A stretch of 64,000 nt of DNA from positions 110,610,001 through 110,674,000 of the forward strand of contig NC_086097.1 of assembly GCF_963921235.1 (NCBI RefSeq), given 5' to 3'. Origin of the DNA: Mobula hypostoma. Its lineage: Eukaryota. Position 1 is the stretch's first letter. Each line of letters begins with the position of its first letter. The position numbers were made by a program, and so were the translations under genes. Under the pieces are notes generated by a model. It did no database searches. It worked only from the letters and a program-made list of their open reading frames with translations, and was not told the DNA's origin. This document shows positions 14,192 to 51,650 of this stretch, in pieces.

Positions 14192-15109
14192 CTGTAGATG
14201 AAAACAAATAATTTATTTAAATTTAAAGCATCACCAAAAACTTCCAAAAGACAATCTAAATCTAAAAGCAGAAGCCCGTGTAGCTCAATAAATAGTAAGA
14301 ACTGATTCTCACCTTCATCCATTAGAAACTACTGGAATTTGACTTTTATCTTTTAGGAGTTGGGTTTCAGTTGTATAAGTTAAAAGAAGATCATATTTAG
14401 TTTTAATTTCAACACGTCTTTGACATAAAGTAGGTTCTGGAGCCAAGGCATAGTCTTGGTCTAACTGTTTCAGCTGATTAGCTAAATCACTTCTCTCTTT
14501 ATTAGCTTTCCTCTTAATACTTGCAGTATAAGAAATAATTCGTCCTCTAATATACGCCTTAAAGGCATCCCATCTTATAAGACTTGAAGTCTCCTCTAAC
14601 GTATTCTCTTCAAAAAAAAAGGTCATTTGTCTCTCCATAAACTTTAAAAACTCTTTATCACATAACAAAGTTAGTTTAAATCCCCAAAATTTATTTGTTT
14701 GAAGAAGACCAGGAAGATTTAAAGATGGAAACACAGGAGCGTGATCTGAAATAGCAATCTCTTTATATTCACAGGATCACACTAATGGAATCAGTTGGCT
14801 ATCAGTAAAAAAAAATAATCAATCCTAGAATATGTATGATGAACGTGAGAAAAAAACCGAATATTCCTTATCTACTGGATGAGAAAAATGCCAGGCATCA
14901 ACAATAAAAAAGATTTAATAAACACAGCTGATTTATTTGGTATCATTGATTTAAAAGATGAACGATCTAAAACTGGATCTAAGCAACAATTAAAGTCTCC
15001 ACCCATCACCAATGAGTACAGACCTAGATCTGGCAAATGAAAAAAAACGCTCAAAGAAACCTGGGTTATCTATATTCGGAGCATACACATTGGCAAATAC
15101 CATTAATTT

Positions 15110-15208
15110 GTTAGTCCTGACGAACGGTCTCGGCCTGAAACGTCGACTGCACCTCTTCCTATAGATGCTGCTTGGCCTGCTGCGTTCACCAGCAACTTTG
15201 ATGTATGT
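15110..15208 (+). mobile_element. Short hammerhead-bearing pLTR insertion 1 (99 bp) in the L1 endonuclease
   Basis: Flanked by the 12-bp TSD taccattaattt (15098-15109 / 15209-15220). The sequence matches PLE pLTR 46942-47039. Confidence 0.9.
15113..15148 (+). ncRNA. Minimal type-I hammerhead ribozyme motif
   Basis: AGTC-CTGACGA-acggtctcggcct-GAAA-C-GTC-GACT. Stem I is AGUC/GACU; there is one substitution in stem II. Confidence 0.7.
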
Positions 15209-15929
15209 TACCATTAATTTATTATTTAGTTTCCCTGATACTATAACAAAATGCCCATTAATATCAGAAATTACTTTATGTTGAACAAAGGGAACTTTAT
15301 TATCTATAAGGTTTGAAACTTCTCTTGCTTTGGCCTGAAATGAAGAATGAAAATGAGATTCCCTCCGTCAATAAAAAAGCGTGAATTGTCACACTTGCGT
15401 ACATGTGTTTCTTAAAGAAAAACAATGGGTACCTGAAGTTTTTCAATATAGGCAAAAATCGTATTTCTTTTCACAGGATGATTTAGTCCTTTTACATTAA
15501 AAATAAGTAAATTAATACTTTGATCCATTTTAAGGCCCTTTATACGAAAGATTAAAATAGCAATCAGAAAAATGTATATCAAACCCAAATAATAAACCTT
15601 GAAATATATTAACTAAGCAACAGAATTGACTAAATTCCCAAACCAGCTTCAAGAAAAAAAGACTCCCTATCCCTCCTCCCCCTCCCAAAGAAAGAAACTT
15701 CGTCATAGAGCAACCATTATCTACTTCTCCTAAACACATTCCCTTAGAAAGCCTGTTGGAACCGCTCCCAAGAATTCAGGGTTATTTACTTTCCAACCTA
15801 GACCAAATAATACAGTGAGAAACAAGCTCAGACAGGTTTATCAAACAGAAATAATAATTATTCATACTAAAAGATACTAAACAGTCTTTTTTAATATGTG
15901 GTATTTCTGTTTTGCAAGATTTTTAGTCT

Positions 15930-15969
<40 letters not shown>

Positions 15970-16026
15970 TACAGTCATTGACTTTTTATAAGTCTAAAAA
16001 TTCTTGCCATGTTCCTTCATATAGAA

Positions 16027-16729
16027 CTACTTAAATAATCCATCTTCCAATGTAATCCTCAGTCGAGCCAGAGAACAAAGAGAGGGTTTAAAATTTTGAC
16101 TGTATAACTGCATCATAACTTTTTTGAACCTAGCATGTTCTGCCATAACTTCTGATGAATAATCTCCAATACGTATCTTTTGATCTTGATAGTCAGTCAT
16201 ACCTTCTCTATGGGCAGCATGAATCAGACGATCCTTTATTTGATATTCATGGAAACAGAAAATGACTGATCTTGGTTTAGATTTTGATGCCGATTGGTAG
16301 ATAGGTGACCTGTGAGAACAATCAATCAAAGGCACAGACTTTATAACATCAGGGAATAATTCCATCAAAAGATTTGCAAAGAATTCTTCAGGATGATCTC
16401 CTTCCGTTTGTTCTTTAAGTCCCAGGATTCGTAAGTTGTTCCTCCTACTTCTGTTTTCCAAATCAATAATCTTCTGGTCATCATTTCATTAGTCTTAAAT
16501 TGTTTTTCATATAGCTTTTGCATATCATCCATTCTCCCATCCAGTAAAGTAATAACATCTTCACGTTCCTTATCTTCTTATCATGTTCGGTTAGAATTAC
16601 TTGAATATCTTCTAGTTTCGTACCTATTTGTTTAATTTCAGTGCTGATTTCCTTTCTAAAATGTTGAAACTCCTCAGTAAGCTTTTGAATTGAACTCGTA
16701 ATAGCTTCCAAAGCTGCTTTGGTAGTCAT
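16027..16729 (-). pseudogene. L1 ORF1 (frameshifted)
   Basis: Coiled-coil N-terminus MTTKAALEAI..., followed by the L1 ORF1 motifs LENRSRRNNLRILGLKE, IDCSHR and KPRSVI. Confidence 0.85.
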
Positions 16730-16832
16730 ATTAAAATAATATCCTGTCTAACAATAGTCTTTCAAAAGGTTGAAGAGAAAAGTAAGTAAATTAGGAGCAG
16801 CAGTAGAGAGCTGTTACCCCATCAGCTCTCTA

Positions 16833-19505
16833 TTTTATATTCATGGAGATAAAACAGGTAAATTATTGGCTGATCAAATTAAAACCTGTAGAGCTAAACA
16901 ACAGATTAAGGAAACATGCAAAGCTAATGGCGATAGGACAACTGATTATTTAGAAATAAATGATACTTTCAGAGAATTTTACTCCGAACTTTATAGTTCT
17001 GAATCTTCTAAGGATCATACTGTAGTGAACAATTTTTTTAGATCAGATAAATATTCCTACAGTTTCTGCGAACAACAGAAAATTGTTGGAACAACCAATT
17101 TCTTTTGAGGAAATTGTCGAGGTTGTGCGCTCATTACATTTGAGGAAAGCTCCGGGTCCAGACGGATTTTCTGGAAAACTTTACAAGACCTTTTCCTCAC
17201 TGCTTATGCCTCATTTATGTTCAGTTTTTTCGGATTCATTTAAGTCGGGCAGACTCCCTCAATCTTTTTATGAGGCTTCCATTTCGCTTATTCTTAAGAG
17301 GAATAAGGATCCAACTGAATGCTCTTCTTATAGACCAATTTCTTTACTTAATGTTGACGCTAAGATCTTATCTAAAGTTCTGGCCCATAGGATTGAAAAT
17401 ATTTTACCATCTGTCATTTCTGAGAACCAAACCGGATTCATCAAAAATCGATATTCTCACTTTAATATTCGCCGGTTATTAAATGTTATTTATTCTCCTT
17501 CTAACACGGTATCGGAATGTGTAGTATCTGTAGATGCTGAGAAAGCTTTCGACAGAGTTGAATGGAATTATTTATTTAAAACTTTAGAAAAATTTAATTT
17601 TGGACCTGTTTTCATTCAATGGATTAAATTACTTTATTTAGCCCCTTCTTCTAGGGTTATCACTAATTTTGATAACTCCAAACCATTTAAGCTTCAACAT
17701 GGCACTAGACAAGGTTGTCCATTGAGCTCTTTGCTTTTTGATCTGGCCTTAGAACCCTTAGCCATTGCTTTTTGAAAATCTAATGATATCACCAGTATTT
17801 TAAGGAGAGACATAATTCATAAAGTCTCGCTGTATGCCGATGATTCCCTGCTATTTATTTCTAATGTTGAGACTTCATTACCCCATGTGCTTTCTTTACT
17901 CTCCTGTTTAAGCCAGTTTTCAGGTTATAAATTAAACCTACATGAAAGTGAACCTTTCCCTTTGAACAATTTGATACCAACAAATTTTAACCTTCCTTTT
18001 AAAATTGTAAGAAACCAATTTACTTATTTAGGTGTAACAATTACTAAAAATTATAAGTGTCTATTTAAAGAAAAAATTTTTAGTCTATTGAATCATGTAA
18101 AAAGAATACTATTAAATTGGTCACCTCTTTCGTTATCGTTAATCAGTCGAATTAACTCTATCAAAATGAATATATTACCTAAATTTATATATCTTTTTCA
18201 GGCATTGCCGATTTTCATTCCTAAATACTTTTTTGATTCTCTTGACTCTATTGTATCTTCTTACATATGGAAGAATAAGCATTCTAGATTAAATAAAATT
18301 CATCTTCAGAAATATAAGAAGAATGGAGGATTAGCCTTACCAAATTTTAGATTTTATTATTGGGCAGTTAATATAAGAAATCTTACATTTTGGTTATATT
18401 ATATAAATTGTGAAGATTGCCCGATGTGGGTTTTCTTAGAAGCTAATTCTGTTAATAAATTCTCTATTATTTCTCTTCTTGGATCCTCACTTCCTTCGTC
18501 TTTGAGTAAGTTAACTGATAATCTGGTAGTTAAACACACTATAAGGATTTGAATACAATTCTGAAAATATTTTGCCTTATTGAGATTTTCTCTTTTGAGT
18601 CCCATTTTTTCTAATTTTTTTTAAACCCTCTATGATTGATGTGGCTTTTAAAGAATGGGATAGATTAGGTATTAAATGCTTTCAGGACTTGTTTGTAGAG
18701 GGAAGTCTTTCTTCGTTTGAACAACTGTCAACTAAATATCGTTTACTCAAAACTCATTCTTTTCAATATCTACAAATAAGAGATTTTTTACTGTCTCAAA
18801 TAAGTACATTTCCTAAAAGTCATGATAAGAATCTACTAGATGTAATTTTTAATCTGAAACCTTTTTATAATAGATCTATATCTAATATTTATAATATGCA
18901 ATTGGGAATGAGAAGTGTTCCTTTAGATAAAGCTAAAAATCTTTCGGAACAAGATTTACAGACTTCAGTTTCTGAGGAAACTTGGAATCAAATTTTTAAA
19001 TTGGTCAACACTTCATCGTAATGTGCCCGTCACTCTCTCCTTCAACTTAAAGTGGTCCATAGGGCCCATATGACTAAGGATAAATGGTCTCATTTTTACT
19101 CAGATATATCTCCGTATTGTGATAAATGGAGAAGCTTCACTCATTCATATGTTTTGGACATGTCCGAGTCTTGGAAAATATTGGAAAGAAGTATTTCAAA
19201 CCTTTTCGATACTTTTTAAAGTAAATTTCAAGCCTAGTCCTTTGACTGCTTTATTTGGTATTGTTGGAGGAAAGGATATTATTTTGGAACCATCTGATTT
19301 GCACATTTTGGCTTTTATGTCTCTTATGGCCAGAAGGACGCTTTTGCTTAAATGGAAAGATGTGGCCCCTCCTATTCACGCCTAATGGTTACATGATGTG
19401 ATGTCATGTTTAAATTTAGAGAAGATTTGATGTTCAAACTTTGAATCTAGTCAAGACTTTCAAACATTGTGGGGACCTTTTCTGAGTTATTTTAAAAACC
19501 TTTGA
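16833..19505 (+). pseudogene. L1 ORF2 RT and C-terminal region (stops and frameshifts)
   Basis: ORFs 16770-17108, 17083-17775, 17887-18552, 18632-19021 and 19119-19385 form a colinear L1 ORF2. Confidence 0.9.
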
Positions 19506-19728
19506 TTTGCTGTTAAAGCACAGATGATGACTCACAATCTTTTTTTCTTTTTTTCCTACTAATCAGCTTCAGTCTTGGTAGCGGGTTAGATTTTTTTAAT
19601 ATAATAAAATTATTATTTTTCAATGTTACGAACTAATTGACTTATACTAATATAGGGTAAGCAGTCTTTATATGCGATTTAGCTTAATGTATTGACGTAT
19701 ATTTTTTTCCTGTATTCTGTATTCTTTT

Positions 19729-19766
<38 letters not shown>

Positions 19767-20294
19767 TAATAAAAATATTGAAAGAGAAACGAATGGAGTT
19801 TGGATTATTATTAATACAAGGCATAAAGTGTCTTTGGTAATAAAGATACTTCTCATTTTGATAATGAGACTTCATCAACTCTTTACATTTTCATCCATAT
19901 TTTTATTCTGAATATCTTTAAAAGTAATTTGTCCGCACTGCTGAAACAACCATCCTGACCAAGAATTAAAAATTGCATTTCTACGTGTACCTCTGCGGCC
20001 TCCTACGCATCCAAATATGATGTTTAGTGATCAGGAAGATGCTCTAGGTTTAGTAAACCACAAAGGGGAAAGTACTTTGATCTAAAGTGTTGAGTAATTT
20101 CAACCAAACAGCTGTCAAAAAAAAACTTTCTTTCTTTCTTTGACGTACCAGTTCCTTCTGCGGCATCAGCAGAGACTTCCAACAAGTAAATAGATTTCTG
20201 GGGTAGCTATCCAGACCTGTGCAGACTGCTCCTGCGCAGTTTCAGCATCTGCCTCTATACTGTAAAGTACTTTGAAGAGAATGCAAAAGTTCGG

Positions 20295-20750
20295 ACATTA
20301 TCCCTGAATCATCAGGAGCCTGATGGCTGACTGGTTAAAACAGTTCCTGAACCTAGTGACATGGATCCTGCTCCCGTACTTCCTTCCTTATGGCAGCAAG
20401 AAGAGAGCATGCCATGGATGGTGGGGGTCCTTGATGATGGATGCTGATTTCCTGCAAAAGTACTCCCTGTAACTGTGCTCAGCGGTGGGGAGGGCTCAAC
20501 CCGTGACGGACTAGGCTGTATCCCCTACTGTTTGTAAGCATTTCTATTCGAGGGTATTGGTCTTTCCATACCAGGCCATGATGCAACCAGTCAATATACT
20601 CTCCACCACACACCTACAGAAATTATCACAGCTTTAGATGACATGTCGAAATCTTTGCAAACTTCTAAGGAAGTAGAGGCACTACTGTCCCCTCTTTGGA
20701 ATGACGCTTAAGTGCTGAACCCAGGACAGACCCTCTGAAATGATAAACTC
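20295..20750 (-). mobile_element. Rex1/Babar-type LINE fragment
   Basis: The reverse strand resembles the Rex1 C-terminus (ESILTGCIMAWYG, IIKDPHHP), matching the other copies in the window. Confidence 0.6.
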
Positions 20751-22675: not shown

Positions 22676-22889
22676 CGTCTTTCACACATTCCAGTAGTCT
22701 CATTTTCCTTTATCTCCACACCAGAAGTTGTCAATATATTGAAATTAAATGATCATTAAACCAATAAGCAGGCTGTATCTCATCCCAAACACTTACGTCT
22801 TTCACATACTCCAGTAATCTAATTTCTCTGGATTTCTGCATCAAGATCTTTCAATGTTTTGAGATCAAATGATAATTAAACCAATGAGC
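22676..22889. repeat. Diverged direct tandem duplication, 120-bp period
   Basis: cgtctttcacacattccagtagtct...gatcattaaaccaataagc aligns without gaps to cgtctttcacatactccagtaatct...gataattaaaccaatgagc 120 bp downstream. Confidence 0.8.
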
Positions 22890-22958
22890 TTGTCATATTC
22901 CAAGAAGTATGAAAATCCAGATTTTAGTTTTCTGTTCCACTGGAGTCAAACCCTAGAG

Positions 22959-23017
22959 CAGGGGTTCCCTTGCTTAATAGTATTGGTCCATGGCATAAGA
23001 AATGTCGGGAACCCCTG
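22959..23017. mobile_element. Tiny hAT (Charlie/MER5-like) MITE
   Basis: TIRs caggggttccc / gggaacccctg. The 8-bp flanks ccctagag / ccccaaag match at 6/8. Confidence 0.6.
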
Positions 23018-24049
23018 CCCCAAAGCTTCATAATCGCAAAGTCTACAGAAGTTCATGTCTTATTCACTCAATCAATGAATAACCTCCGCATAATGATTTT
23101 AAATTAGATTTTATTGAAAGCTGTTAGCTTTCAGGATCTGAGCTAAATTAAATTAGGAGTGTAAAGTTCAAATTCTAATTCATTATCTAATTAAATACAG
23201 CTTTCAACTCCAAAGCTGTTTAACTTAAACTATGGATTTAAGCAAGTAATTCTATTAATTTAAAAAAAATGTAATAAAGCAAAGTACTGTATTAGCTACA
23301 AGGAGATACTGGAGTAGGAATTTACCTCAGGTCATATTAACATAGTCGTGCTTGATTTCAATGGAAAAATATTTTTTAGCCAGAGAACAATGTTCATTCT
23401 ACAACCATGTGCTTACTGAACATATCTCCAAGGTCGTGCTCCTACTCCATCAAAATTAATTCTGAAATTCGGGTGCAGATCCCACAATCCTGAGATCACC
23501 ATGTCACTACATTCCAAACTTTTCGGCTTCCATGTCTGAACACATCTGCAATCTCCTGTCACTTAGTATGATTGTTCCAAAATGCAGGATTTGATATATA
23601 AATACATATCTAATATCTACATTATTGCAGTGAAGTTAAGATAAACTCAAAGGGTTAGTCTTTGAAACTACCATAGTTTGAAAAGTAGATCTACTGATTT
23701 AGATGGAACTTATAGCTAGTGCTCTCAGTGAAAGAAGCACGAGTGGAAAACACAGCCAATTTAAGAACAACAGCCACAAGTTGAATACAATACCCACCCA
23801 AATGCTCCACTAATCTTTTCATCGTGGAAGGACACAAGATGTACACTTACACCCATTTTGAAGAAACTGCAAGTTAAGATGTGTGCACAAACAGTAAAAC
23901 ACATTCTTTATCAATCAGACTCAAGGATGTCACAGTCTGAAATGCTGCCTCGCTGCTGAGATCCACCAGCATTTTGTGTGTGTTCCTTTAGATTTCCAGC
24001 ATTTGCAGATTTTCTTGTGTTTAGAATAGAGTCTCATGTAGAGCCTCAG

Positions 24050-25452: not shown

Positions 25453-26769
25453 AAATGTCTCCCTCCTGTACATCATTCATATCTTCCACTTCCCCCCCCC
25501 ACCCCGTATTCGTGTGACTATTTCAAAGCTTATTGAATGCCAATTCCTCACTATGCTTGAGAACTCTTCAGGAACCCACCAATATTTATATAAAAAAAAC
25601 ATGGCCCTCATGTTGCCTTTAAACTTTCCCCCATCTAACCTTAAAAGCATGATCCTAGACTGTCCTTCTGATGAAAACTTCCTCGCCATGTGCACTCTGT
25701 TCTGGCTTTTCAGAATCCAGGAGGATTCAATGAGATAACCCCACCCCCATCTTCATCCTTCTGAGTTCCACCAAATCCAGGCCCAGAGATTTCAGACTCT
25801 CCTCATACGTTAACCCTTTCATTCCCAGATTTTTTCTTGTGATCCTCCTTTGGGTCATCTCCACAGCCAGCACATTCATTCTTTGATATTGGGCTCAAAA
25901 TTGCTCACAATAAAATATTCCAAATGTCATCTGAGCAATGCCTTATAAAAGCTCTCTTTGTAATTTTGATTTCTAAATGTTTCTTCCCATTTAGAAAATA
26001 GTCTAACAGACAAAATGGTGGAGATGAGGCAGATTCTATAAACAGTCATCATTTCAGGCTGAGACCATTCATCAAGACTTCTCAGTCCAAAATGTCACCT
26101 GTTTATTCCTCTCCACAGATGCTCCCTGACCTGCTGAGTTATCCCAGTATTTACGTGTGTGCTACTCCAGATTTCTAGCATCTGACGAATCTCTTCTGTT
26201 TGGAAAACTGACGAGACCTCTATTCTTCCTATTGAAGAACATTATCCCACACTTCCCTACACCATCTGCCACTCCTTTGCCATCCTTCTGTGGATTCTCC
26301 AATCTTGGTATCATCTGCAAACTTGACCACAATGCCCTGTCAGATCCTTCATCTAGATCATAAACACATGTGAAAGGTTGCATTCCAACACTGGCCCCTG
26401 CAGAATCCCACTAATCACTGGCAGCTGAAAAGGACCCCTTTATTCCAACTCACTGACTTCTGTCAGAGAGCCAACCTTTCATCCACCTTGACTCTAACAC
26501 CACAGGCTTTTACCTTGCTTAGCAGGATGTACAGCACTTTTTCAAAGGCCTTCTTAATATCCAAGTTATTAATGTCTACTGACTCTTTTGACAAACCTAC
26601 TCAATACCTCCTCACAAATTTCCAACAGATTTGTCAAAAAATCCTCATAGATTTTTCATTTCTTAATGAAACTATACTGACTTTTCCCTATTTTATGTTG
26701 AAGTTCTAAGTATTCTGTAATTTCATCTTCAATAAGCAAACATAATTGTGCGCTAAAGTTGGATGCAAT

Positions 26770-30920: not shown

Positions 30921-32784
30921 AAAGGAATGAAACTGATCACTGATCATGCTGACCTGAACTATAAATATCGTTAATGTGGACATTCCCTAGACTAGGTCTC
31001 TGTGCTCCTGCCATTGGCCGGTCTCCACAAGAGTGAACTTCCATGTTGCCGACAAGATTCTGGCCAGGCCTAAACAACCAAAGAGGTAAAACGTTGTGCG
31101 TTGGCCACATAAACAGGAGGACTGATGGATCAGGGAGGTTGGGTCTGGGAGTGCTCAGCATGAAATGCCAGAGCTAAGGAGGGGGAGTAAGGTCAAGCAG
31201 CATGAGGGATCTATCCAAAGTCGTGCCTGCACTCATCCAGCTATTATAAACATGGGAGACTCTGCAGATGCTGGAAATCCAGTGTAACACACATAAGATG
31301 CTGGAGGAACTCAGTTGCACAGGGAGCATCTACGGAAATGAATGAAAAGTCAACATATTGGGCCAAGGCCCTTCACCAAAACTCCGAGCAGGTCAGCCTG
31401 TTTATCTTTATCCAACAGTTAGCGGTGGGAGGAAACAGAGAGAGATGCTAGATAGATGATATTTCAAATGTTCCTTCAAAGTACGTTCAATTTGCAGTAT
31501 TCATTAAAGAAAATAGTTTCAACATGGTTTCAAAGTTGACTTCTTGAATGCAAATAATTAACTTTTAAATCACCTGCAGAATGCACACATCAAGATGGGG
31601 GATTTTAACTTACACACAGAATAAAAAACTCAGGTGGAAAAAGGAGATTAAGAATAAGGAGTCTATAGGATGCTATCTACATCAGAGCCAACCAGAATGC
31701 AAGCCATTCTACAGCCGCTATTGGGCAGTGAGACTGGATTAATCAATTGTTTCATTGTGATAGTAGGTTTCAGTGATCAGATTCACATTTATTTATTGAA
31801 ACATGCAGTGAAATGCAAGTGCTAACAACCAACACTCCCAAGGATCTGCTGGGGGCAGCCCACAAGTGTTGCCACACATTCCAGCGCCAACATAGCTTGT
31901 CCACAGTGCTCGGCAGGGCCACACAGAACACAAGAAGCAACAAAACAACAACTGCAAAACAAGCCCCATTCCTCCCTCCCACCTACCATAACGTGTTCAA
32001 TTTTACATTTGACTAATGGGAGAGATAACTAGCTCTGAGACTAATATTTTAAACTTAAACAAAGACAATTACTAGAATATGAGAGCAAAGATTTGCAAAT
32101 TAGGTTAAACTATCAGAGTATTATCAGATGTTTAAAGGGGCCTTTCAGTATATGCAGAAAAGATACATCCTGGCAAATAAAAAAAAATCCAAAGGGAGAG
32201 CCAGTTATCTATGGTTAAATAAGAATGCTAAAGCTAGTTTCAACCTGAAAGAAAAAAAAACACCTTTTAAGTGAATAAAGGCAGTTGGCAGCTCAGAAGA
32301 TCAGACAAGATATGTACGACAAGTGACTTGAGAGTTATTAAGAAAGCATGGGTATCAAAGGAGGCAGAGATAATGAGAAGGGAAATGGAGATGCTTGCCA
32401 GGTGAATATCCATTGAAAACCAGGTTAGTGGGAAGCTGAAAAGGGAACGAATTGTGAGTACAATAAAATGGCAGTAAACATAGAAGCGAATCTGGAAGTC
32501 CATCGACAAGGATGTGAATCAAAAGGGAATGGCAGATCAGATAAAGAAAATGCTTTTTTTAGAAAGAGGTAAAGACATAGAAGAGAGGGATGCAAATATC
32601 ATAGGAGAAGGGAAAGAAATGAAAATAAATGTCGTGAAGATTGATAAGGAGGAAATATCAGAAATACTGCCTATTATTAAACGACAATAGACTTGAATAT
32701 TATGTAATCTAGGCTACAGAGAGACTGGAGATTGCAGGATTTCCTACAGTGTTCCAATCCATCTGAAGTACATATGGAGTTTAA

Positions 32785-33018
32785 TTTTAATTTAATTTAG
32801 CACAATTAACAAGCCCTTGCAGCCCAATGATCCCACGCCACCCAATTACACCTATTTTACCAAATAATGTACTAACCCACATGTCTTTGGAATGTAAGTC
32901 GAAACCCAGGTGGTCACGCAGACAACGTGCAAACTCCTTACAGACAGCAGTGGGAATTAAACCCTGGTTGCTGTCGCTGTAAAACGATGCATTAACCACT
33001 ACACCACTGTGCTGCCCC
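32785..33018 (-). mobile_element. tRNA-derived V-SINE
   Basis: The reverse strand starts ggggcagcacagtggtgtagtggttaatg with a B-box-like ggtttaattcc. The core resembles 3344-3630. Confidence 0.65.
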
Positions 33019-39840: not shown

Positions 39841-39959
39841 CCTACTCTTATTAGACCTTCAAAAATGCTTCACCTCACATATCAGAAAAATTACAACTGT
39901 AAATGCTCTGTATAACATTCAACTTGTCAATATTATTCTATATTCAATATTATTTCTTC

Positions 39960-42900
39960 GACTCATAAGGGAGAATGAGGCAGTTATAGATGAGAACTAC
40001 AGGGAGGTAGTCACACCTAGGCTGTCGGAAGCAGGTCGTTGGGTGACAGTCAGAGGGGGGAAAGCGAAGGTGAGCAGACAGTTAGTGCAGAGCACCCCTG
40101 TAGCCATTCCACTGAACAATAAGTTTACCGTCCTGGATACTGTTGGCGGGGATGACCGACCAGGTGTGAGCCACGGTGCAGGGCCTCTAGCACTGAGTCT
40201 GAACCGGTGGTGCAGAAGGGTGGGACGGAGAAGAGGAGAGCTGTCGTCATTGGAGACTCTATAGTCAGGGGAGCAGACAGGAAATTTTGTGGACGTGAGA
40301 AGGATACCTGCATGGTTTGTTGCCTCCTGGGTGCCAGGGTCCGGGATGTCTCTGACCGGGTGCACGACATCCTGGTACGAGAGGGAAAGTAACCAGAAGT
40401 CGTGATACATGTTGGCACCAACGACATAGGCAGAAAGAGGGATGAGGTCCTGAAGTGTGAGTTTCGGGAACTAGGCAGGGCTGAAGAACAGGACCTCAAG
40501 GGTGGCGTTCTCAGGATTGCTGCCAGTGCTATGTGACAGTGATGGTAAGAATTGGAGGAGGTGGCAGTCAAATGCGTGCCTGAGGAGTTGGTGCAGGGAG
40601 CAGGGTTTTAGATTTTTGGATCATTGGGATCTCTTCTGGGGAAGGTGGGACCTGTACAGATTGGATGGGTTGCACCTGAACTCGAGGGGGAGCAATATCC
40701 TTGCAGGTAGGTTTGCCAGCATGGTTCGGGAGGGTTTAAACTAATTTGCAAGAGGGATGGGACCCAGAGCGATAGAGCAGTGAAAGAAGTGCATGGAGTA
40801 AAGCCAGATCTTAGAGAGACTTTGAGGAAAGAGAAGCAGAATAAACGGTGTAAAGGTAGTAAGGCAGGAAGGCTGCAGAGAAGGGGTGGCATTACTGGTC
40901 AGGGATACTATTACAGCTACAGAAAGGGTGGGTAATGTAGCAGGATCCTCTTTTGAGTCAATATGGGTGGAAGTCAGGAACAGGAAGGGAGCAGTTACTC
41001 TACTGGGGGTATTCTGTAGGCCCACTGGTAGCAGCAGAGATACAGAGGAACAGATTGGGAGGCAGATTTTGGAAAGATGCAAAAACAACAGGGTTGTTAT
41101 CATGGGGGACTTTAACTTCCCTAATATTGATTGGCACCTGATTAGTTCCAAGGGTTTAGATGGGGCAGAGTTTGTTAAGTGTGTCCAAGACAGATTCCTG
41201 TCACAGTTATGTGGACAGGCCGACTAGGGGGAATACCATACTAACCTAGTACTCGGTAATGAACCGGGTCAGGTCACAGATCTCTCAGTGGATGAGCATC
41301 TGGGGGACAGTGACCACCGCTCCCTGGCCTTTAGCATTATCATGGAAAAGGATTGAATCAGAGAGGACAGGAAAATTTTTAATTGGAGAAGGGCAAATTA
41401 TGAGGCTATAAGGCTATTGCGGGTGTGAATTGGGATGATGTTTTTGCAGGGAAATGTACTATGGACATGTGGTCGATGTTTAGCGATCTCTTGCCAGGAT
41501 GTTAGGGATAAATTTGTCCCGGTGAGGAAGATAAAGAATGGTAGGGTGAAGGAACCATGGGTGACAAGTTAGCTGGAAAATCTAGTCAGGTGGAAGAAGG
41601 CAGCATACATGAGGTTTAGGAAGCAAGGATCAGATGGGTCTACTGAGGAATATAGGGAAGCAAGAAAGGAGCTTAAGAAGGGGCTGCAAATAGCAAGAAG
41701 GGGGCATGAGAAGACCTTGGCGAGTAGGGTAAAGGAAAATCCCAAGGCATTCTTCAATTATGTGAAGAACAAAAGGATGACAGGAGTGAAGGTAGGACCG
41801 ATTAGAGATAAAGGTGGGAAGATGTGCCTGGAGGCTGTGGAACTGAGCGACGTCCTCAATGAATACTTCTTTTCGGTATTCACCAATGAGAGGGAACTTG
41901 ATGATGGTGAGGACAATATGAGTGAGGTTGATGTTCTGGAGCATGTTGATATTAAGGGAGAGGAGGTGTTGGAGTTGTTAAAATACATTAGGATGAATAA
42001 GTCCCCGGGACCTGACGGAATATTCCCCAGGCTGCTCCATGAGGCGAGGGAAGAGATTGCTGAGCCTCTGGCTAGGATCTTTATGTCCTCGTTGTCCACG
42101 GGAATGGTACCGGAGGACTGGAGGGAGGCGAATGTTGTCCCCTTGTTCAAAAAAGGTAGTAAGGAAAGTTTGGGTAATCATAGACCAGTGAGTCTTACGT
42201 CTGTGGTGGGAAAGCTGTTGGAAAAGATTCTTAGAGATAGGATCTATAGGCATTTAGAGAATCATGGTCTGATGAGGGACAGTCGGCATGGCTTTGTGAA
42301 GGGAAGATCATGTCTAACAAGCCTGATAGAGTTCTTTGAGGAGGTGACCAGGCATATAGATGAGGGTAATGCAGTGGATGTGATCTATATGGATTTTAGT
42401 AAGGCATTTGACAAGGTTCCACACAGTAGGCTTATTCAGAAAGTCAGAAGGCATGGGATCCAGGGAAATTTGGCCAGGTGGATTCAGAATTGGCTTGCCT
42501 GCAGAAGGCAGAGGGTCGTGGTGGAGGGAGTACATTCAGATTGGAGAATTGTGACTAGTGGTGTCCCACAAGGATCTGTTCTGGGACTCTACTTTTCGTG
42601 ATTTTTATTAACGACCTGGATGTGGGGGTAGAAGGGTGGGTTGGCAAGTTTGCAGACAACACAAAGGTTGGTGGTGTTGTAGATAGCGTAGAGGATTGTC
42701 GAAGATTGCAGAAAGACATTGATAGGATGCAGAAGTGGGCTGAGAAGTGGCAGATGGAGTTCAACCCGGAGAAGTGTGAGGTGCAACACACATCAAAGTT
42801 GCTGGTGAACGCAGCAGGCCAGGCAGCATCTCTAGGAAGAGGTACAGTCAACATTTCAGTGTGAGGTGGTACACTTTGGAAAGATAAACTCCAAGGCAGA

Positions 42901-43620
42901 GTACAACGTAAATGGCAGGATGCTTGGTAGTGTGGAGGAGCAGAGGGATCTGGGGGTACATGTCCACAGATCCCTGAAAGTTGCCTCACAGGTGGATAGG
43001 GTAGTTAAGAAAGCTTATGGGGTGTTAGCTTTCATAAGTCGAGGGATAGAGTTTAAGAGTCGCGATGTAATGATGCAGCTCTGTAAAACTCTGGTTAGGC
43101 CACACTTGGAGTACTGTGTCCAGTTCTGGTCGCCTCACTATAGGAAGGATGTGGAAGCATTGCAAAGGGTACAGAGATTTACCAGGATGCTGCCTGGTTT
43201 AGAAAGTATGCATTATGATCAGAGATTAATGGAGCTAGGGCTTTACTCTTTGGAGAGAAGGAGGATGAGAGGAGACATGATAGAGGTGTACAGGATAATA
43301 AGAGGAATAGGTAAGAGTGGATAGCCAGCGCCTCTTCCCCAGGGCACCACTGCTCAATACAAGAGGACATGGCTTTAATGTAAGGGGTGGGACTTCAAGG
43401 GGGATATTAGAGGAAGGTTTTTTACTCAGAGAGTGGTTGGTGCGTGGAATGCACTGGTGGAGGCAGATACACTTATGACGTTTAGGAGACTATTAGACAG
43501 GTATATGGAGGAATTTAAGGTGGGGGGTTATATGGGAGGCAGGGTTTGAGGGTCGGCACAACATTGTGGGCCGAAAGGCCCGTAACGTGCTGTACTATTC
43601 TATGTTCTATGTTCTATGTT
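39960..43620 (+). mobile_element. CR1 LINE, 5'-truncated, with SGNH-esterase ORF1, APE and RT (disrupted)
   Basis: ORF1 motifs VIGDSIVRG, VIHVGTND and DGLHLN. Endonuclease motifs IMGDFNFPNIDW and SDH. RT motifs KSPGPDG, HRPVSLTS, DFSKAFDKV, GVPQGSVLG and FADNTK. An (ttctatg)n tail lies at 43598-43620. Confidence 0.95.
42784..42857 (-). mobile_element. Short pLTR insertion 2 (74 bp, truncated inside the hammerhead core) in CR1 ORF2
   Basis: 11-bp TSD agtgtgaggtg (42773-42783 / 42858-42868). The reverse strand reads GAAATGTTGACTG...TTTGATGTGTGTTG. Confidence 0.9.
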
Positions 43621-44619
43621 TTTAAACTATTTGTTTTACTATCAATAACACTACCATTTTCTATGACCTGCAAACTTACTAATCATATCTCCAACATTCA
43701 CATCCAAGTGAATAATTAATGTATATGAGAAACAGTAAGAGTCCCAGTACAGAAACCTGTGATACACAACTGTCAAAAATCACTGCCTGGCTCCTGTTAC
43801 TAAACTAACTTTAGGTCCAAATTATACACTTACCTTGGATTTCATAGATCTAATGGCAGCATTGGGAAAATACTTTATCAGTGCACCATGCCCAAATTCA
43901 AGGCACTAACAAACAACAGGATGTTTATTAATGTAAATATGATGTTACAGTTTGAAAGAATTCCACTTGTTTTAATTGAAATAATTCAGTACAAATCTGC
44001 TTCAATTATGTACTAAGTCGAGTAATAATAGATAAACTAATGCCTTATAGAATTGTAGAATGATGTACAGCTATACACTTAGGATTAATGAGAAGTACAA
44101 AAGATCCTCCAGGATCACCAAGAAAAGCAACTGATAAAATTATTCTTTTTCATCATAAGAAGGTCTTTATTGTAATATAGACAAAAATTGTGTGTAATAA
44201 ATATCCAGAGAGCCCATTGAAGAGAGAAGTCACGCTTGCTGGTTATTCATCTTTACCAAATGTCATGAAGCTACATAACATGAAACAACATGATGATTCC
44301 TCACTTCAAGGAAATCACAGGTATTGCGTTTGAATGGTCATATTAATTGGCAGTATAGTCCTGAACAGCTGAATGGCCACTTTCCTCCTATTTTTCTGTA
44401 TTTTTTATAATTGTTTCTTGAACTACCTGACATGGCATCCATTGGCTCCGAAGAGGGCTCAGCAGAAACAGTAATTGTTACATATAATGCCCCAAGTGCA
44501 GCCTATCCAAGGTCTGATACAACTGCAACAATACTTCCTGACTCTTGTACTCTACAATGATAAGCTTGCTAATAAGCCTTCAACGCAGCAGGCCAGGCAG
44601 CATCTCCAGGAAGAGGTGC

Positions 44620-44655
44620 AGTCGACGTTTCAGGCCAAGACCCTTCGTCAGGACT
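44620..44655 (-). ncRNA. Minimal type-I hammerhead ribozyme motif in the left pLTR
   Basis: The reverse strand reads AGTC-CTGACGA-AGGgtcttggCCT-GAAA-C-GTC-GACT, with core and stem I intact. Confidence 0.75.
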
Positions 44656-44889
44656 AACTGAAGGAAAAGTGAGTAAGGGATTTGAAAGTTGGAGGGGGAG
44701 GGGGAGATCCAAAATGATAGGAGAAGACAGGAGGGGGAGGGATGGAGCCAAGAGCTGGACAGGTGATAGGCAAAAGGGATACGAGAGGATCATGGGACAG
44801 GAGGTCCGGGAAGAAAGACAAGGCGCGGGGGGACCCAGAGGATGGGCAAGGGGTATATTCAGAGGGACAGAGGGAGAAAAAGGAGAGTG

Positions 44890-46143
44890 AGATGCGGCGG
44901 AGACGGAGGAATTGCGAGAAGGGGATGGCGTTTTTGCAAGAGACAGGGTGAGAAGAGGAATAGTCCAGATAGCTGTGAGAGTCAGTAGGCTTATAGTAGA
45001 CATCAGTGGATAAGCTGTCTCCAGAGACAGAGACAGAAAGATCTAGAAAGGGGTGGGAGGTGTCGGAAATGGACCAGGTAAACTTGAGGGCAGGGTGAAA
45101 GTTGGAGGCAAAGTTAATAAAGTCAACGAGCTCTGCATGCATGCAGGAAGCAGCGCCAATGCAGTCGTCGATGTAGCGAAGGAAAAGTGGGGGACAGATA
45201 CCAGAATAGGCATGGAACATAGATTGTTTCACAAAGCCAACAAAAAGGCAGGCATAGCTGGGACCCATACGGGTGCTCATAGCTACACCTTTAGTTTGGA
45301 GGAAGTGGGAGGAGCCAAAGGAGAAATTATTAAGAGTAAGGACTAATTCCACTAGCCGGAGCAGAGTGGTGGTAGAGGGGAACTGATTAGGTCTGGAATC
45401 CAAAAAGAAGCGTAGAGCTTTGAGACCTTCCTGATGGGAGATGGAAGTATATAGGGACTGGACATCCATGGTGAAAATAAAGCGGTGGGGGCCAGGGAAC
45501 TTAAAATCATCGAAAAGTTTAAGAGCGTGAGAAGTGTCACGAACATAGGTCGGAAGGGATTGAACAAGGGGGGATAAAACCATGTCGAGGTATGCAGAAA
45601 TGAGTTCGGTGGGGCAGGAGCAAGCTGAGACAACAGGTCTGCCAGGACAGGCAGGTTTGTGGATCTTGGGTAGGAGGTAGAAACGGGAAGTGCGAGGTAT
45701 GGAAACTATGAGGTTGGTAGCAGTGGATGGGAGATCCCATGAGCGGATAAAGTCAGTGATGGTGTGGGAGACAATGGCCTGGTGCTCCTTAGTGGGGTCA
45801 CGATCGAGGGGTAAATAAGAGGAGGTATCCGCGAGTTGTCGCTGTGCCTCGGCAAGGTAGAGGTCAGTACGCCAGACTATAACAGCACCCCGCTTATCGG
45901 CGGGTTTAATAATAAGGTTAGGATTAGTGCAGAGGGAGTGGAGAGCAGACCGTTCCGAAGGAGTGAGGTTGGAATGGGGACAAGGTGCAGGGAAGTCGAG
46001 ACGGTTGATGTCCCGTCGGCAGTTAGCGATAAAGAGATCCAGAGCAGGCAGAAGACCAGAGCGGGTTGTCCATGAAGAAGAGGAGGGTTGAAGACAGGAG
46101 AAGGGGTCATCGGTGGGGGTGGAAGAGTCCTTGCCGAAGAAGT
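44890..46143 (-). CDS. PLE reverse transcriptase (open, truncated at both ends)
   Basis: Stop-free part of ORF 44654..46240: IKPADK, FYLLPKIHK, GRPVVS, FTMDVQSLYT, RYIDD, FLDL, VYYKPT, AIPFSQFLRLRRI. Confidence 0.85.
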
Positions 46144-46149
46144 CCTCCC

Positions 46150-46652
46150 CCCCCCTCTGCATTCTGTAGGGATCGCTCCCTACGCAACTCCCTTGTCCAT
46201 TCGTCCCCCCATCCCTCCCCACTGATCTCCCTCCTGGCACTTATCCATGTAAGCGGAACAAGTGCTACATATGCCCTTACACTTCCTCCCTTACTGCCAT
46301 TCAGGGCCCCAAACAGTCCTTCCAGGTGAGGCAACACTTCACCTGTGAGTCGGCTAGGGTGATATACTGCGTCCGGTGCTCCCGATGTGGTCTTTTATAT
46401 ATTGGCGAGACCCGACGCAGACTGGGAGACCGCTTTGCTGAACATCTACGCTCTGTCCGCCAGAGAAAGCAGGATCTCCCAGTGGCCACACATTTTAATT
46501 CCACATCCCATTCCCATTCTGACATGTCTATCCACGGCCTCCTCTACTGTAAAGATGAAGCCACACTCAGGTTGGAGGAACAACACCTTATATTCCGTCT
46601 GGGTAGCCTCCAACCTGATGGTATGAACATCGACTTCTCTAACTTTCGCTAA
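46150..46652 (+). CDS. PLE linker Zn-knuckle and GIY-YIG endonuclease (frameshifted linker)
   Basis: VIYCVRCSRCGLLYIGETRRRLGDRFAEH...VATHFNSTSH...LEEQHLIFRLGSLQPDGMN. Confidence 0.85.
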
Positions 46653-46944
46653 TGCCCCACCTCCCCCTCGTACCCCATCTGTTACTTATTTTTATGCACA
46701 CATTCTTTCTCTCACTCTCCTTTTTCTCCCTCTGTCCCTCTGAATACACCCCTTGCCCATCCTCTGGGTCCCCCCCCCTTGTCTTTCTTCCCGGACCTCC
46801 TGTCCCATGATCCACTCGTATCCCTTTTGCCTATCACCTGTCCAGCTCTTGGCTCCATCCCTCCCCCTCCTGTCTTCTCCTATCATTTTGGATCTCCCCC
46901 TCCCCCTCTAACTTTCAAATCCCTTACTCACTCTTCCTTCAGTT

Positions 46945-46980
46945 AGTCCTGACGAAGGGTCTCGGCCTGAAACGTCAACT
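46945..46980 (+). ncRNA. Minimal type-I hammerhead ribozyme motif in the right pLTR
   Basis: AGTC-CTGACGA-AGGgtctcggCCT-GAAA-C-GTC-aACT, with one stem I mismatch. Confidence 0.7.
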
Positions 46981-47136
46981 GTACCTCTTCCTAGAGATGC
47001 TGCCTGGCCTGCTGCGTTCACCAGCAACTTTGATGTGTGTTGCTTGAATTTCCAGCATCTGCAGAATTCCTGTTGTTTGCGTTTTAATAAGCCTTCAATA
47101 CCACTCTATCTATTTCTATTACCACTTTCTGGGGAG

Positions 47137-48370
47137 GTTATCTTGACTATAACTCTTCCCACCCTGTCTCTTGTAAAAATGCTATTCCACTTTCTCAATT
47201 CCTTCATCATTGTCGCATCTGTTCCCAGGACTCAGCTTTCCCTTCAGGACATTAAAGGTGTCCTCTTTCTTCAAAAGTTGGGGTTTCCCTTTCTCCACCA
47301 TTGATACTGCCCTCACCTGTATCTCCTCCATTTCCCAGACATCTGTGCTCACACCTTAGCCCTGCCTTAACAGGGATATAATTCCTCTTGTCTACACCTA
47401 CCACCCCGAGAGCCTCAGCATTCAACACATCATTCTCCACAACTTCCTCCGTCTTCAATGGGATCCTACCACCAAACACATCAATATCTTCCCCCCTCTC
47501 TGCCTCCCCCCACTTTCCACACTCCCTCCATGATTCCCTTTCCATTCGTCCCTCCCACAATCTCCCTCCTGGCACATGCGTACCACTGCAAGCGACTGAA
47601 ATGCTACACCTACCATTTACCTCCTCCATTCAGGGCCCCAAACAGTCATTCCAAGTGAGGCAACACCTCACCTGTGAACCTGTTGCGGTCATCTATTAAA
47701 TCAGGTGCTCCCAATGTGGCCTCCTCTACACTGGTGAAACCCAACATAAATTAGGAGACTGCTTTGTTAAGTATCTCCACTCCATCCGCCGAGAGCAGAA
47801 TTTCCTGATGGCTATCCATTTTAATTTCTATCCCCATTCCCATTCCGACAGGTTGATCCACAGACTCCTCTTTTACTGTAACGAGACCACTCTCAGAGTG
47901 GATGAGCAACGCTTCCTATTCTGTCTGGGTAGCCTCCAACTTGATGGTATGAACATTGATTTCTCCTTCTGGTAAAAAATTCCCTTCCCTCTTCTTCTAT
48001 TATCCATTCTGGCCTCTTTCCTCTTCTTCTCACCTGCGTATCAACTCCCCCTGGTGCCTCCTTCTTCCCTTTCTCCTATGTTCCACTCTCCTCTCCTATC
48101 AGATTCCTTCTTCTCCAGCCCTTTACCTTTCCCACCTACCTGGCTTCACCTATCAGCTTCTAGCTAGTCCTCTTTCCTCCCCCACCCTACCCGTCCTTTT
48201 TATTCTGGCGTCTTCCCCCTTCCTTATCAGTCCTGAAGAAGGGTCTCGGCCTGAAACATCAACATTTATTCATTTCCATAAATTCTGCCTGACCTGCTGA
48301 GTTCCTCCAGCATTTTGCCTGTGTTGTTCTGGACTTCGAGCATCAGTAGAAACTCTTGCATCTTTGACTT
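47137..48370 (+). mobile_element. Older PLE 3' remnant (thumb/linker, GIY-YIG, pLTR)
   Basis: IQGPKQSFQVRQHLTCEPVAVIY and decayed GLLYTGET motifs. Hammerhead-like agtcctgaagaagggtctcggcctgaaacatc at about 48229. Confidence 0.8.
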
Positions 48371-49164
48371 TCAGGGAGATATGGACTTGGACTACAATAT
48401 CCCTCTGAACTTAACAAGATTCACTTGGGTTGAAAGGAATATTGGCCAGGGTACAGTAGCATTTTCTCTGACCATTAGTGACAGTACAGAATGGTCAATT
48501 AGTTATACAGGTGCATATGTCGTAACATTTATGGAAAAATGATCAGGGGGGTTTAGAATAATTATTGGGCAATGAAATTATTTCTGATTATACATCAATA
48601 GAGAGCTTCACTTGGTACAGCACATGATCCCTGCTGTTGTGACTGACCCACTGCCCTCCTTCTCCTCAGGATCATCCTCCAGTTCATTCTGCTCCTCCTT
48701 TTGTTGTAGTCCTTCAAACAAGCGCTGTGCTGGTGGTTTTCTTGTACAGGAAACAGCAGATACTGATCACTTGGCTTTCGTGCACAAATGCACAAATGCA
48801 GATCAAGGAATCTCAACTTCCATAGACTGAAGACTACTGTGTGGTTATTGTAGCCCACAAAACTGAAAACTCTACTTGGTTAAGTTAGCTCAATTTCCAG
48901 AGAGGCATGATACAACGCAAAATGAACACAAGCATATTCCATCAGATATATAATGGATTTTCATTTCTGCGGTATTGCTAAAACACTCTGATCAAATTTC
49001 CAGGCAAATTATTGAGTTCACTGTAAAGGCATGTGTGACTTTGATAATAAAACTGGTACATTAGATGAAGAGAATCCATTTTCAGTTGACATCAAATAAA
49101 AATCAAATAACTGCAAACATTGGAAAAAAAATATAAACATTAAATGTAGGAAACACTCAGTAGA

Positions 49165-50330
49165 TCATAACACCATAGGACGTAAGAGCTGAATTAGGCC
49201 ATTTGGCCCATCAAATCTTCTCTGCTACTCAATCATGGCTGATTTATTTTCCTGCTCAATCCCATTCTTCTGCCTTTTAATAGTTAGGCTGTAAACTTTG
49301 ATTCCCTAACTAATCAAAAACCTATCCATTTCTATTTTATGTATATCCAATGACTTGGCTCCCACAGCCGTCTGTGGCAATGAATTCCACAGATTCACCA
49401 GCCCTTGGCTCAGGAAATCTCTTGTTATCTCTGTCCAAAAGGGACACACTTGTATTCTGGGGCCCTCTGGTCCTAGACCCTCCCAATATTGGAAACATCC
49501 TTCCAACATCCAGTCTACCTCAGACTTTCAATTTTTGGTATGTTTCAAAGACATTCCTCCCCGCCTCATTCTTCTAAACTACAGTAATCACAGGCTCAGA
49601 GCTATCAAACACTCTTCATATATTAAACTTTTCATTCCTGGGATCACACTCGCAAACCTCCTCTGGACTGTCCCCAATGCCAGCACACATCCTTTCTTAG
49701 ATATGGGGCCCAGAATTGCTCACAATATTCTAAATTTGGTCTGTCCAATGCCTTATAAAGCCTTATAAATGTAAGCATTACATTCTTACTTTTATATTCC
49801 AGACCTCTTAAAATGAAAGCTGAAGTCGCATTTGCCAGACCAACCCAGCCTGCAAGTTAACTTGTAGGGAATCCTGCATGAGGACTCACAAGTTCCTTTG
49901 CATCTGATTTCTGAATTTGTTTCCCATTTAGAAAATTGTCTACACTTTTACTCCTTCTACCAAATGCATGACCATACCCATTCCATCTGCCACTTCTTTT
50001 ATCCATTCCCCTAATCTATCCAAGTCCTTTTGCAGACTGTTTCTCAACACAGCATGCCCCTCCATCTATCTTTGTATCACCTGCAAACTTGGCAACAAAG
50101 CCATCAATTACATTATCCCAATCATTAACGTGTAACATGAAAAGTGGTGAAGCCAACACTGACCCCTGTGGAACACTAGTCACTGGCAGCTATGCAGAAT
50201 AGGCCCCCTTTATTCCCAGTCTCTGCCTTCTACCAAGTCAGTCAATCCTTTGTCTATGCTAGTATCTGTCCTGTAATATCATGGGCTTTTATATTGTTTA
50301 GCAGCCTTATGTGTGGCACCTTGTCCAAAT
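49165..50330 (-). mobile_element. Degraded CR1 3' fragment
   Basis: DFLSQGLVNLWNSLPQTAV motif and CR1 3' end. Confidence 0.75.
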
Positions 50331-50619
50331 AAACATTATATTTTTTGGTGGGCTACAATCAGCACAAGAGGCCAATCGTTGGATATACAGAGTGAGGTTT
50401 AAAAAGAGCTCGGCTGCTTTTCAGTGGGCTGCAATCAGCACAGAGCCAATAAAAAGAAGGGAGGTGTAAATGGAGCAGCCACTATGTAAGTGGGGCAGTG
50501 TTAGAATGGTCCGGCTTTGGCTCAACAAGCATAGGTGAGAACAGGCCTGGGCCAGCACAGGCAAAGATTCCAAGTAATTTGGATAATTCAGTGATTTTCT
50601 GAAAGATATCAACATTACA

Positions 50620-51650
50620 TAAAAGGAAGCATTGGTGGTCTTGAAGGGGTGACCAAGAGGATTGATGAGAGCAGGGTGATAGGTGATATCTGCGTAGACT
50701 TTAGCAAGGCTTTTGACAATGTCCCACATGGTAGTCTGGTCTAGAGATAAGAATACATGGAATACAAGGTGAACTGACCAAATGGATACAGAATTAGACT
50801 GATAGGAGACAAAGAGTGGTAGTAACACACATTAAAGTTGCTGGTGAATGCAGCAGGCCAGGCAGCATCTCTAGGAAGAGGTACAATCGACGTTTCAGGC
50901 CGAGACCCTTCGTCAGGACACCTGAGTGGTAGTGGAAGTTTGCTTTTCAGACTGGTAACCTGTGACCAGGGAAGCCCTGCAGGGATTATTGCTGGGCCCC
51001 TTACTATTTGTCTCATATATTGACAACCTGGATATGAACACAACTATGATTAGTGAATTAGCAGGTGACATCAAAAGTGGTAGTGCAGAGGTCAATGAAT
51101 AAAGTTGTTTAAGAGCTGGGATATTATCTTAGAGACGAACAATTTGCTGAGACAACACCTGGAGTATAGGCTAGGCCACCCTTGGGCGTATTGTGTACAA
51201 TTCCAGTTGCCATACTCTAGGAAAGATGTGATCAAACTAGTGAGGATGCAGGAGAGATTCACAAATGGACAGGAGAGCTTGAAATATGAGGAGAGTCTGA
51301 ATAGGCTGGGATTGTTTTTCCTGAAGTGAAGGGGTAACCTTAGAGTGGTTTATAAAATTAAAGGGAACAGACAAGGTGAATAATCACAGTATTTCTCCAA
51401 GAATAAGGGAATCGAAAGATAGATGAGAGGCTCAAGGTGAGAGGAGGGGAAAGATTTAAGGGGATCCTGCTGCCAGAGGAGGTGGTAGACAAGGGCACAA
51501 TTACAATGTTTAAAAGACATTTGGACAAGTACGTGGATAGGGAAGGTTAAGAGGGATGTTTACCAAATGCAGGCAAACAGGATTAGTTCAGGAGGGCACT
51601 TCAATTGGCATAGATTAGTTGGGTTAAGAGCCCTACATCCATGCCATACA
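50620..51650 (+). mobile_element. Degraded CR1 RT fragment (hosts pLTR insertion 3)
   Basis: VDFSKAFDNVPH, RRQRVVVE and LPYSRKDVIKL motifs. Confidence 0.7.
50824..50923 (-). mobile_element. Short hammerhead-bearing pLTR insertion 3 (100 bp)
   Basis: 10-bp TSD gagtggtagt (50814-50823 / 50924-50933). The reverse strand reads gtcCTGACGAagggtctcggcctGAAACGTCgat...tttaatgtgtgtt, with 4 extra nt at the 5' junction. Confidence 0.9.

Follow-up and report, generated by a model that had tools for sequence, protein, structure and literature searches.

Several Penelope-like elements (PLEs) have been described in enough detail to serve as references for insertion by this group of retroelements. Neptune and Nematis PLEs are marked by a CX2-5CxxC linker (PMC8557442). 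For PAc, a PLE of Anolis, an in vitro system is described in which copying initiates internally and cleavage by the hammerhead ribozyme is not needed; uncleaved RNA is used, RNA well downstream of the start sites is required, and a tail lies between two internal start sites of the reverse transcriptase (RT) (PMC11167929). In Penelope of D. virilis, the reported start site lies in the pseudo-long terminal repeat (pLTR), about 120 nucleotides (nt) upstream of helix I, and an intron ends at helix I. The locus compared here with these systems is a 64,000-nt stretch of the Mobula hypostoma genome (NC_086097.1, positions 110,610,001 to 110,674,000, forward strand; "the window"), which contains a PLE and three hammerhead-derived insertions of 74 to 100 nt ("minis"). 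An initial annotation had taken the minis for an independently mobile, ribozyme-bearing family.

The minis are read here, with modest confidence and from genomic sequence, as short one-off PLE insertions. Their template would often span about -100 to +204, and RT would run off its 5′ edge, on the outer side of the uncleaved hammerhead. Target-site duplications (TSDs) of the endonuclease type, two internal 3′ ends, a positional pile of 5′ ends, the lack of a mini lineage and rare re-entry near +204 were observed directly. All three insertions were found again in the window on the strands and with the TSDs first assigned to them (Table 1). They end at 0, +1, and 0, which confirms a common 3′ point within 1 nt, and none carries poly(A). 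Two of them start at the hammerhead edge (-100 and -96) and one inside the GAAA core (-73), also as first described, and the identity of the three to 46942-47043 is 94 to 96%.

Offsets are counted from the end of the common TGTGTT (0), with -1 at window position 47041 and +1 at 47042. Copy counts are exact 30-mer matches across the genome, with the 30-mer ending at TGTGTT. Arms were taken from all 100 listed places of the main 30-mer and from 70 of 100 listed places for each of two variant anchors, yielding 254 distinct arms (100, 78, and 76) from the first listed places of contig C1. The set of 100 is unselected, while one of the arm sets was chosen for tail-less copies. The rate tables cover 253 arms, one arm ending at -30 being left outside, and stop rates by position use one arm per insertion from the unselected sets (n = 167).

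The 5′ ends pile up at the hammerhead edge. The stop rate per base is 0.21% at -31 to -59, 0.41% at -60 to -70 and 0.94% at -80 to -89, reaches 2.67% at -90 to -99 (32 of 132 at-risk insertions), and declines to 1.2% at -100 to -106, 0.75% at -107 to -130 and 0.16% at -131 to -850. Within -90 to -99, an interval picked after seeing the data, 33 ends were observed against 2.3 expected (p about 1e-26). The edge pile suggested by the initial annotation is thereby borne out. It forms a 25-nt smear: stem I retains its 5′ strand in full in 31 of 104 arms, and part of CUGA is lost in 38 of 104. The pile occupies the same position in tailed as in tail-less arms (medians -95.5 for the former and -94 for the latter, p = 0.36), so that it reflects a position and not a length; an RT product of fixed length was rejected (p = 1e-13). 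An origin of the 5′ ends at the cleavage site was likewise ruled out by the low rate at -60 to -70 and by the mere 4 of 253 ends at the cut-site offset -65, which upholds the earlier view that uncleaved RNA is copied. The accompanying idea of an RT stop at the ribozyme fold fits poorly, because RT enters the motif from its 3′ side and stops only once all of it has been copied, and because so few pile arms keep the whole stem I strand. The motif is whole in 22 of the 31 pile arms reaching -98, its predicted ensemble forms neither stem I nor stem II, and Rfam returned no hammerhead match in window positions 40000-54000. A stop at a lariat branch point was considered as well, and the 3 ends at -111 are too few to claim it. 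Fold-back about a fixed hairpin centre was rejected, as the arm ends of inverted insertions correlate positively (rho 0.41, n = 66; 0.09, n = 30 in the pile) and not negatively. The older PLE family is represented in this material by 22 incidental copies.

A second group of insertions reveals where copying resumes. Among 30 copies holding the pLTR-ORF junction (ORF, open reading frame), 19 leave the ORF at +79 to +255. Fifteen of the 30 jump from +106 to +225 back, in direct orientation, to -111 to -326 and then proceed to a normal 3′ end (12 distinct junctions); among the remaining ORF-leaving copies, three jump into the ORF and one inverts. Ten of 16 distinct exit points lie at +182 to +225, with the mode at +204. 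Alignment ends at +180 to +225 had been a candidate third 3′ end, which was ruled out since they are internal junctions. Direct repeats of 9 to 14 nt flank 6 of 14 two-round loci examined. The second round stops no more than 12 nt from the first-round end in 5 of 12 unselected junctions, and agreement outside the pile is found in 3 of 10 unselected two-round insertions (p about 0.003). Seven further loci, selected by similarity to the +197/-111 junction, have first-round ends at -97 to -112; four of the seven re-enter at exactly +204, and five second rounds stop within 4 nt of the first-round end (p about 5e-4). On the simplest reading, the template would be a linear RNA that has a 5′ end of its own, at which a covalent circle would not stop. 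The agreement between the two rounds and the lack of a peak at the cut site leave the circular RNA proposed in the initial annotation without support.

The jump units are not amplified. A search with the sequence around one junction raised 2,469 candidates, and of the 40 that were scored, 29 matched across the junction. Exact counting of three junctions gave 2, 2, and 1 occurrences in the genome, which refutes amplified non-autonomous families. Retrozyme-like tandem arrays of pLTR and ORF-start sequence (Table 1) were apparently made in single insertion events. Two nearby pairs of loci on C1 have a rare junction in common and unrelated flanks: L271 and L273 (36.21 and 37.28 Mb), which additionally have the same inversion breakpoints, and L279 and L280 (47.22 and 47.29 Mb). 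Either local re-mobilisation or two insertions from one template would account for such pairs. Separately, 4 of 56 long copies (L308, L313, L331, and L350) have their 5′ ends at +199/+200 against 0.27 expected (post hoc), and these ends may mark the +204 boundary from the other side.

The 3′ ends are bimodal in the unselected 100 arms (39 at 0 to +14, 61 at +27 to +50), with 126 tail-less and 127 tailed among the 254 arms, and lie at about 0 to +10 or +36 to +39. The fixed internal 3′ start of the initial annotation is therefore indeed fixed, but it is not new: the mini 3′ end is the tail-less end already described for PLEs, one of two start sites flanking the tail, and a second end class exists at the tail. 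The anchor masks 3′ ends upstream of 0, which partner arms reveal in 7 of 73 inverted insertions. Inverted insertions make up 100 of 167 short arms. Sixty-six of 73 distinct ones join a tailed to a tail-less arm and none joins two tails; their two arms agree in variants much more often than chance predicts (36 of 37 against 14.8 expected in one case), so both arms come from one template or one cDNA (complementary DNA). Among plain short arms, 42 of 65 are flanked by TSDs, against 3 of 325 shifted controls; among inverted ones the figures are 93 of 100 and 18 of 482. Their genome-wide absence would have contradicted the initial annotation, and they stand well above chance. They measure 9 to 18 nt (median 14) and are 67% AT, compared with 54% AT in the loci examined.

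According to the one-off reading, the element's own enzyme would begin copying at the inner of the two internal start sites and run about 100 bases, as far as the 5′ end that its RNA template would have on the outer side of the uncleaved hammerhead. This template would often extend from about -100 (sometimes -110 to -330) to about +180 to +225 and would form a module, probably protein-bound, that comprises the ribozyme, both start sites and ~130 nt from the beginning of the ORF. After running off the 5′ end, RT would sometimes jump to the 3′ end near +204 and copy again, which would generate tandem units of ~300 nt. A trimmed end at the folded or protein-covered ribozyme is favoured for the 5′ edge over a transcription start, because both edges are ragged. 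The minis lack +5 to +204 and, to judge from the anole data, are probably dead on arrival and not re-mobilised.

That the minis are instead a retrozyme- or SINE-like mini-retroposon of 74 to 100 nt, mobilised in trans and self-propagating, is very improbable, and this model is largely refuted. It would accommodate the thousands of copies, the TSDs, and the common 3′ end. Plain tail-less copies of up to 106 nt account for 8 of 100 and 6 of 74 arms, from which at least about 3,400 (95% confidence interval 1,500-6,500) and at least about 1,000 copies are estimated for the two anchors. These plain minis, however, grade into the tailed, inverted, and long copies. In each of two subfamilies, short copies (73 and 23) were compared with long ones (49 and 30) at 49 columns, and no column differs after correction, the lowest Bonferroni p being above 1; no recurrent 5′ junction is present among the 65 plain short arms. 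The 5′ ends are ragged, with 38 of 104 pile arms ending inside the catalytic core, and all repeated small units found include ORF-start sequence, which is missing from the minis. The proposed new mini-family with independent mobility does not stand, although the high copy number on which the proposal drew does.

Two further explanations keep the minis as PLE products and differ on the cause of the pile. Plain promoter run-off is improbable; it would have RNA polymerase II start within the 5′ pLTR at TTCAGT, the A of which is at -101, and RT, having begun in this pLTR, run off at the cap. TTCAGT is initiator (Inr)-like. The D. virilis start site also lies in the pLTR, and the upstream edge of the pile falls near -102 to -106. 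Yet most ends are located 2 to 20 nt inside -101 with a shoulder to -130, complete copies mostly extend further (18 of 27 full-length copies reaching -80 on the second pass run beyond -130), and the D. virilis start lies about 120 nt upstream of helix I. No consistent extra G, the signature of a cap, was seen by eye at TSD-defined junctions, an absence that also counts against run-off at an RNA 5′ end as the one-off reading has it. A per-pass stop of RT or processing of the cDNA, giving the same one-off products, is the stronger of these contenders and still rather unlikely. It would end ~40% of cDNAs per pass and could be caused by a hairpin at -112 to -82 in RNA or cDNA, or by splicing factors on a pyrimidine tract and AG. 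The hairpin is the leading structure in the predicted ensemble, with pair probabilities of about 0.65; folding of 87 long copies as 36-mers gives it in 85, and the mode of the ends falls in its loop, but it is weak (z -1.97 as RNA, -0.55 as cDNA, about -0.5 in older families). A pyrimidine tract and YAG before the core recur in most older copies examined (for example, 48190-48360 and 13320-13490); with the branch-like motif they may, by analogy with D. virilis Penelope, form a pLTR intron acceptor, for which neither a donor nor a spliced product was found. Among the joints listed from four contig sets, no GT..AG splice joint to -99 or -95 occurs; one joint to -97 was found, without a GT donor. 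Additionally, second rounds end at insertion-specific positions such as -151, -209, and -160, which a per-pass stop does not predict.

Several results weigh against the one-off template with its own 5′ end at the pile. A second-pass sample comprised 66 copies whose anchor lies inside the ORF at +301, drawn from 70 of 100 listed places. Of the 26 copies reaching -90 in it, 7 stop at -90 to -99 (3.1% per nt against a background of 0.21%, p 7e-7), which equals the first pass (33 of 138, p = 0.8) and would be accounted for just as well by a per-pass RT stop. Together with the run-on past -130, these stops imply that the pile is not one fixed start common to all templates. Moreover, none of 12 unselected jumps starts from the pile (-80 to -106), even though, of 117 first-round ends within -330, 84 (72%) are at -106 or closer; the only pile-derived jumps came from the targeted search and from L174 (+177 to -94). 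Pile ends thus jump much less often than others, as a per-pass stop would have it, and a pure RNA-end model does not explain this. The samples come from the first listed places of contigs C1 and C2, and the requirement for an exact anchor biases them towards young copies. Finally, the need for downstream RNA is borrowed by analogy from a Poseidon-clade element, whereas the present one is of Neptune type.

Table 1. Features of the three minis, the long head-to-head insertion, the hammerhead edge, and tandem arrays (window positions unless a contig is named).
Feature	Position	Strand	Remarks
Tail-less PLE mini-insertion 1	15110..15209	+	offsets -100..0; last T common with TSD
TSD of copy 1, TACCATTAATTT	left 15098..15109, right 15209-15220	+	last T common with copy
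Mini-insertion 2	42784..42857	-	offsets -73..+1; without stem I 5′ strand, CUGA core, and stem II
TSD of copy 2, 11 nt	42773..42783 and 42858-42868	+	within CR1-type RT frame
Mini-insertion 3	50824..50923	-	offsets -96..0 and 4 unmatched 5′ bases
TSD of copy 3, 10 nt	50814..50823 and 50924-50933	+	within CR1-type RT frame
Long head-to-head insertion, same PLE	44584..47084		TSD 44570-44583 and 47085-47098
RT part of long insertion	44654-46240	-	
GIY-YIG part of long insertion	46170-46652	+	
Minimal type I hammerhead motif	46944..46981	+	read by eye against the minimal hammerhead description
Hammerhead parts	46944-48; 46949-55; 46969-73		stem I 5′ strand (-98..-94); CUGACGA; GAAAC; stem II also present
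Hammerhead predicted cut	after 46976		-66
Zone equivalent to 5′-end pile	46936..46962	+	-106..-80; mode -91..-99
Predicted alternative hairpin	46930..46960	+	-112..-82; sequesters CUGA core; loop (-99..-94) over stem I 5′ strand; z -1.97
3′-splice-site-like stretch (candidate)	46925..46946	+	branch-like TACTCAC, pyrimidine tract, CAG/TAG just 5′ of stem I
Inr-like TTCAGT (candidate)	within 46925..46946	+	A at -101, just 5′ of stem I
Optional tail	47042..47079	+	+1..+38, between the two 3′-end classes
pLTR and ORF-start array, period 310 x4	G000:C2:157816519-157817673	-	match coordinates only
pLTR and ORF-start array, period 293 x2	G000:C5:167027225-167027687	-	match coordinates only
pLTR and ORF-start array, period 443 x2.3	L277		repeats one junction twice

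Translation of the flanks shows that copy 1 interrupts an endonuclease-like frame on the minus strand, and that the RT frames interrupted by copies 2 and 3 continue across the insertion sites. By their motifs, these targets look like an L1-type endonuclease and a CR1-type RT, respectively. The segment 44584-47084, formerly regarded as the parent, is not the source of the minis and represents a broken head-to-head insertion with its own 14-nt TSD.

The element itself is abundant. The 30-mer ending at TGTGTT has 42,666 exact matches in the genome and a one-base variant 12,190, as opposed to only 674 and 547 for ORF-start anchors; the main 30-mer followed by a non-G base has 4,217. The ~3.5-kb unit consists of a pLTR, the tail, an ATG at ~+75, an ORF of 1,016 amino acids (aa) and a pyrimidine-rich 3′ untranslated region that runs into the next pLTR. 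The ORF (L104:1984-5031) encodes RT and, at the C terminus, a GIY-YIG domain, of which RVT_1 matches at E 5e-5, under the curated cut-off, and GIY-YIG, in the window copy at 46170-46649, at E 9e-5, above the cut-off. A CX4CxxC linker precedes GIY-YIG in the L104 protein, and by the linker criterion alone the element is grouped with Neptune/Nematis. Among 20 of the longest open-frame copies from a protein search, many of which are near 1,000 aa, 9 loci have an upstream pLTR/tail of variable length joined to the ORF start in a partial tandem. With its RT and GIY-YIG ORF, partial-tandem pLTR, optional tail, and inverted partner with TSD, the locus has the composition of an EN+ (endonuclease-bearing) PLE insertion.

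Several copies retain uninterrupted ORFs of ~1,016 aa (L104:1984-5031 and others in the protein search), which suggests a recently active family that would be usable in vitro. The exact full-length protein had no match in the protein collection searched. At one locus (L112, G000:C45:113958535-113967535), foreign sequence at the N terminus reads in frame into the PLE ORF, giving an open frame of 1,625 aa. The window also holds pLTR copies of older related families, 70-80% diverged, at 13355-13483, 23939-24029, 26087-26201, 31241-31374, 48219-48357, and 52393-52481; one 30-mer of the older type has 21,506 exact matches genome-wide.

These results bear on how PLEs make pLTR tandems and on what their hammerhead does, for which tens of thousands of young insertions in one genome form a record of template edges. 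If -100 and +204 are RNA ends, they would define a minimal template and explain why most copies are ~100-140 nt long and dead. A further step is possible but doubtful: the PLE ribonucleoprotein may act on a discrete linear RNA of ~300 nt, bounded 5′ by the folded uncleaved hammerhead and 3′ at ~+204, so that the ribozyme would serve as a structural boundary and not as a cutter, and end-to-end jumps would make hammerhead tandem units de novo as a birth mechanism for animal non-LTR (non-long terminal repeat) retrozymes. This would provide a direct route from a PLE to retrozyme-like tandem repeats, a route for which the basis given in a 2026 preprint is phylogeny only (10.64898/2026.07.22.740005).

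The PLE architecture found here is already known; the two-round re-entry near +204 is new. Neither the hammerhead-edge pile nor the re-entry point came up in a search of titles and abstract openings; outside its coverage lie Repbase, subscription journals, and the PMC11167929 supplements (Fig. S2, genomic insertion ends), which may hold an account of them. Canonical EN+ PLE insertions agree in the ORF for RT and C-terminal GIY-YIG, the partial tandems, the tail at one end only (optional and 30-40 nt long), and the TSDs; frequent 5′ truncation and an inverted 5′-truncated partner are described for them, while the pile and the re-entry at ~+204 are seen only here as far as those descriptions go (PMC8557442, PMC3846280). 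PAc, which belongs to Poseidon (Frangieh et al. 2024, PMC11167929), is alike in its two internal 3′ ends about 35 nt apart, 3′ ends 100-140 nt downstream of an uncleaved hammerhead, and AT-rich targets. It differs in that the present element has a CX4CxxC linker and an ORF starting after the tail (about +75), not inside the ribozyme, and the main text on PAc does not treat genomic 5′ ends.

The minimal hammerheads of metazoan PLEs (Cervera and De la Pena 2014, PMC4209133) correspond to the present motif in having no real helix III, a palindromic ACGU, and an unpaired A before stem II, and they occur mostly as single motifs in truncated PLEs. The model given with them assumes cleavage and circularisation at the cut site, which the ends and junctions here avoid. 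Non-LTR retrozymes (Cervera and De la Pena 2020, PMC7229834; Li et al. 2026, 10.64898/2026.07.22.740005) are likewise pLTR-related, hammerhead-bearing, and non-coding. It is the ~300-440-nt jump units and the 310-nt x4 array that resemble them (mean 363 bp for the one chondrichthyan in the preprint), and tandem units that each have a complete hammerhead are found only as rare jump units (L277 and the C2 array), not as minis. In contrast to retrozymes, the minis are single, ragged, and often without part of the core, and the tandem units of this genome are one-off products that carry ORF-start sequence.

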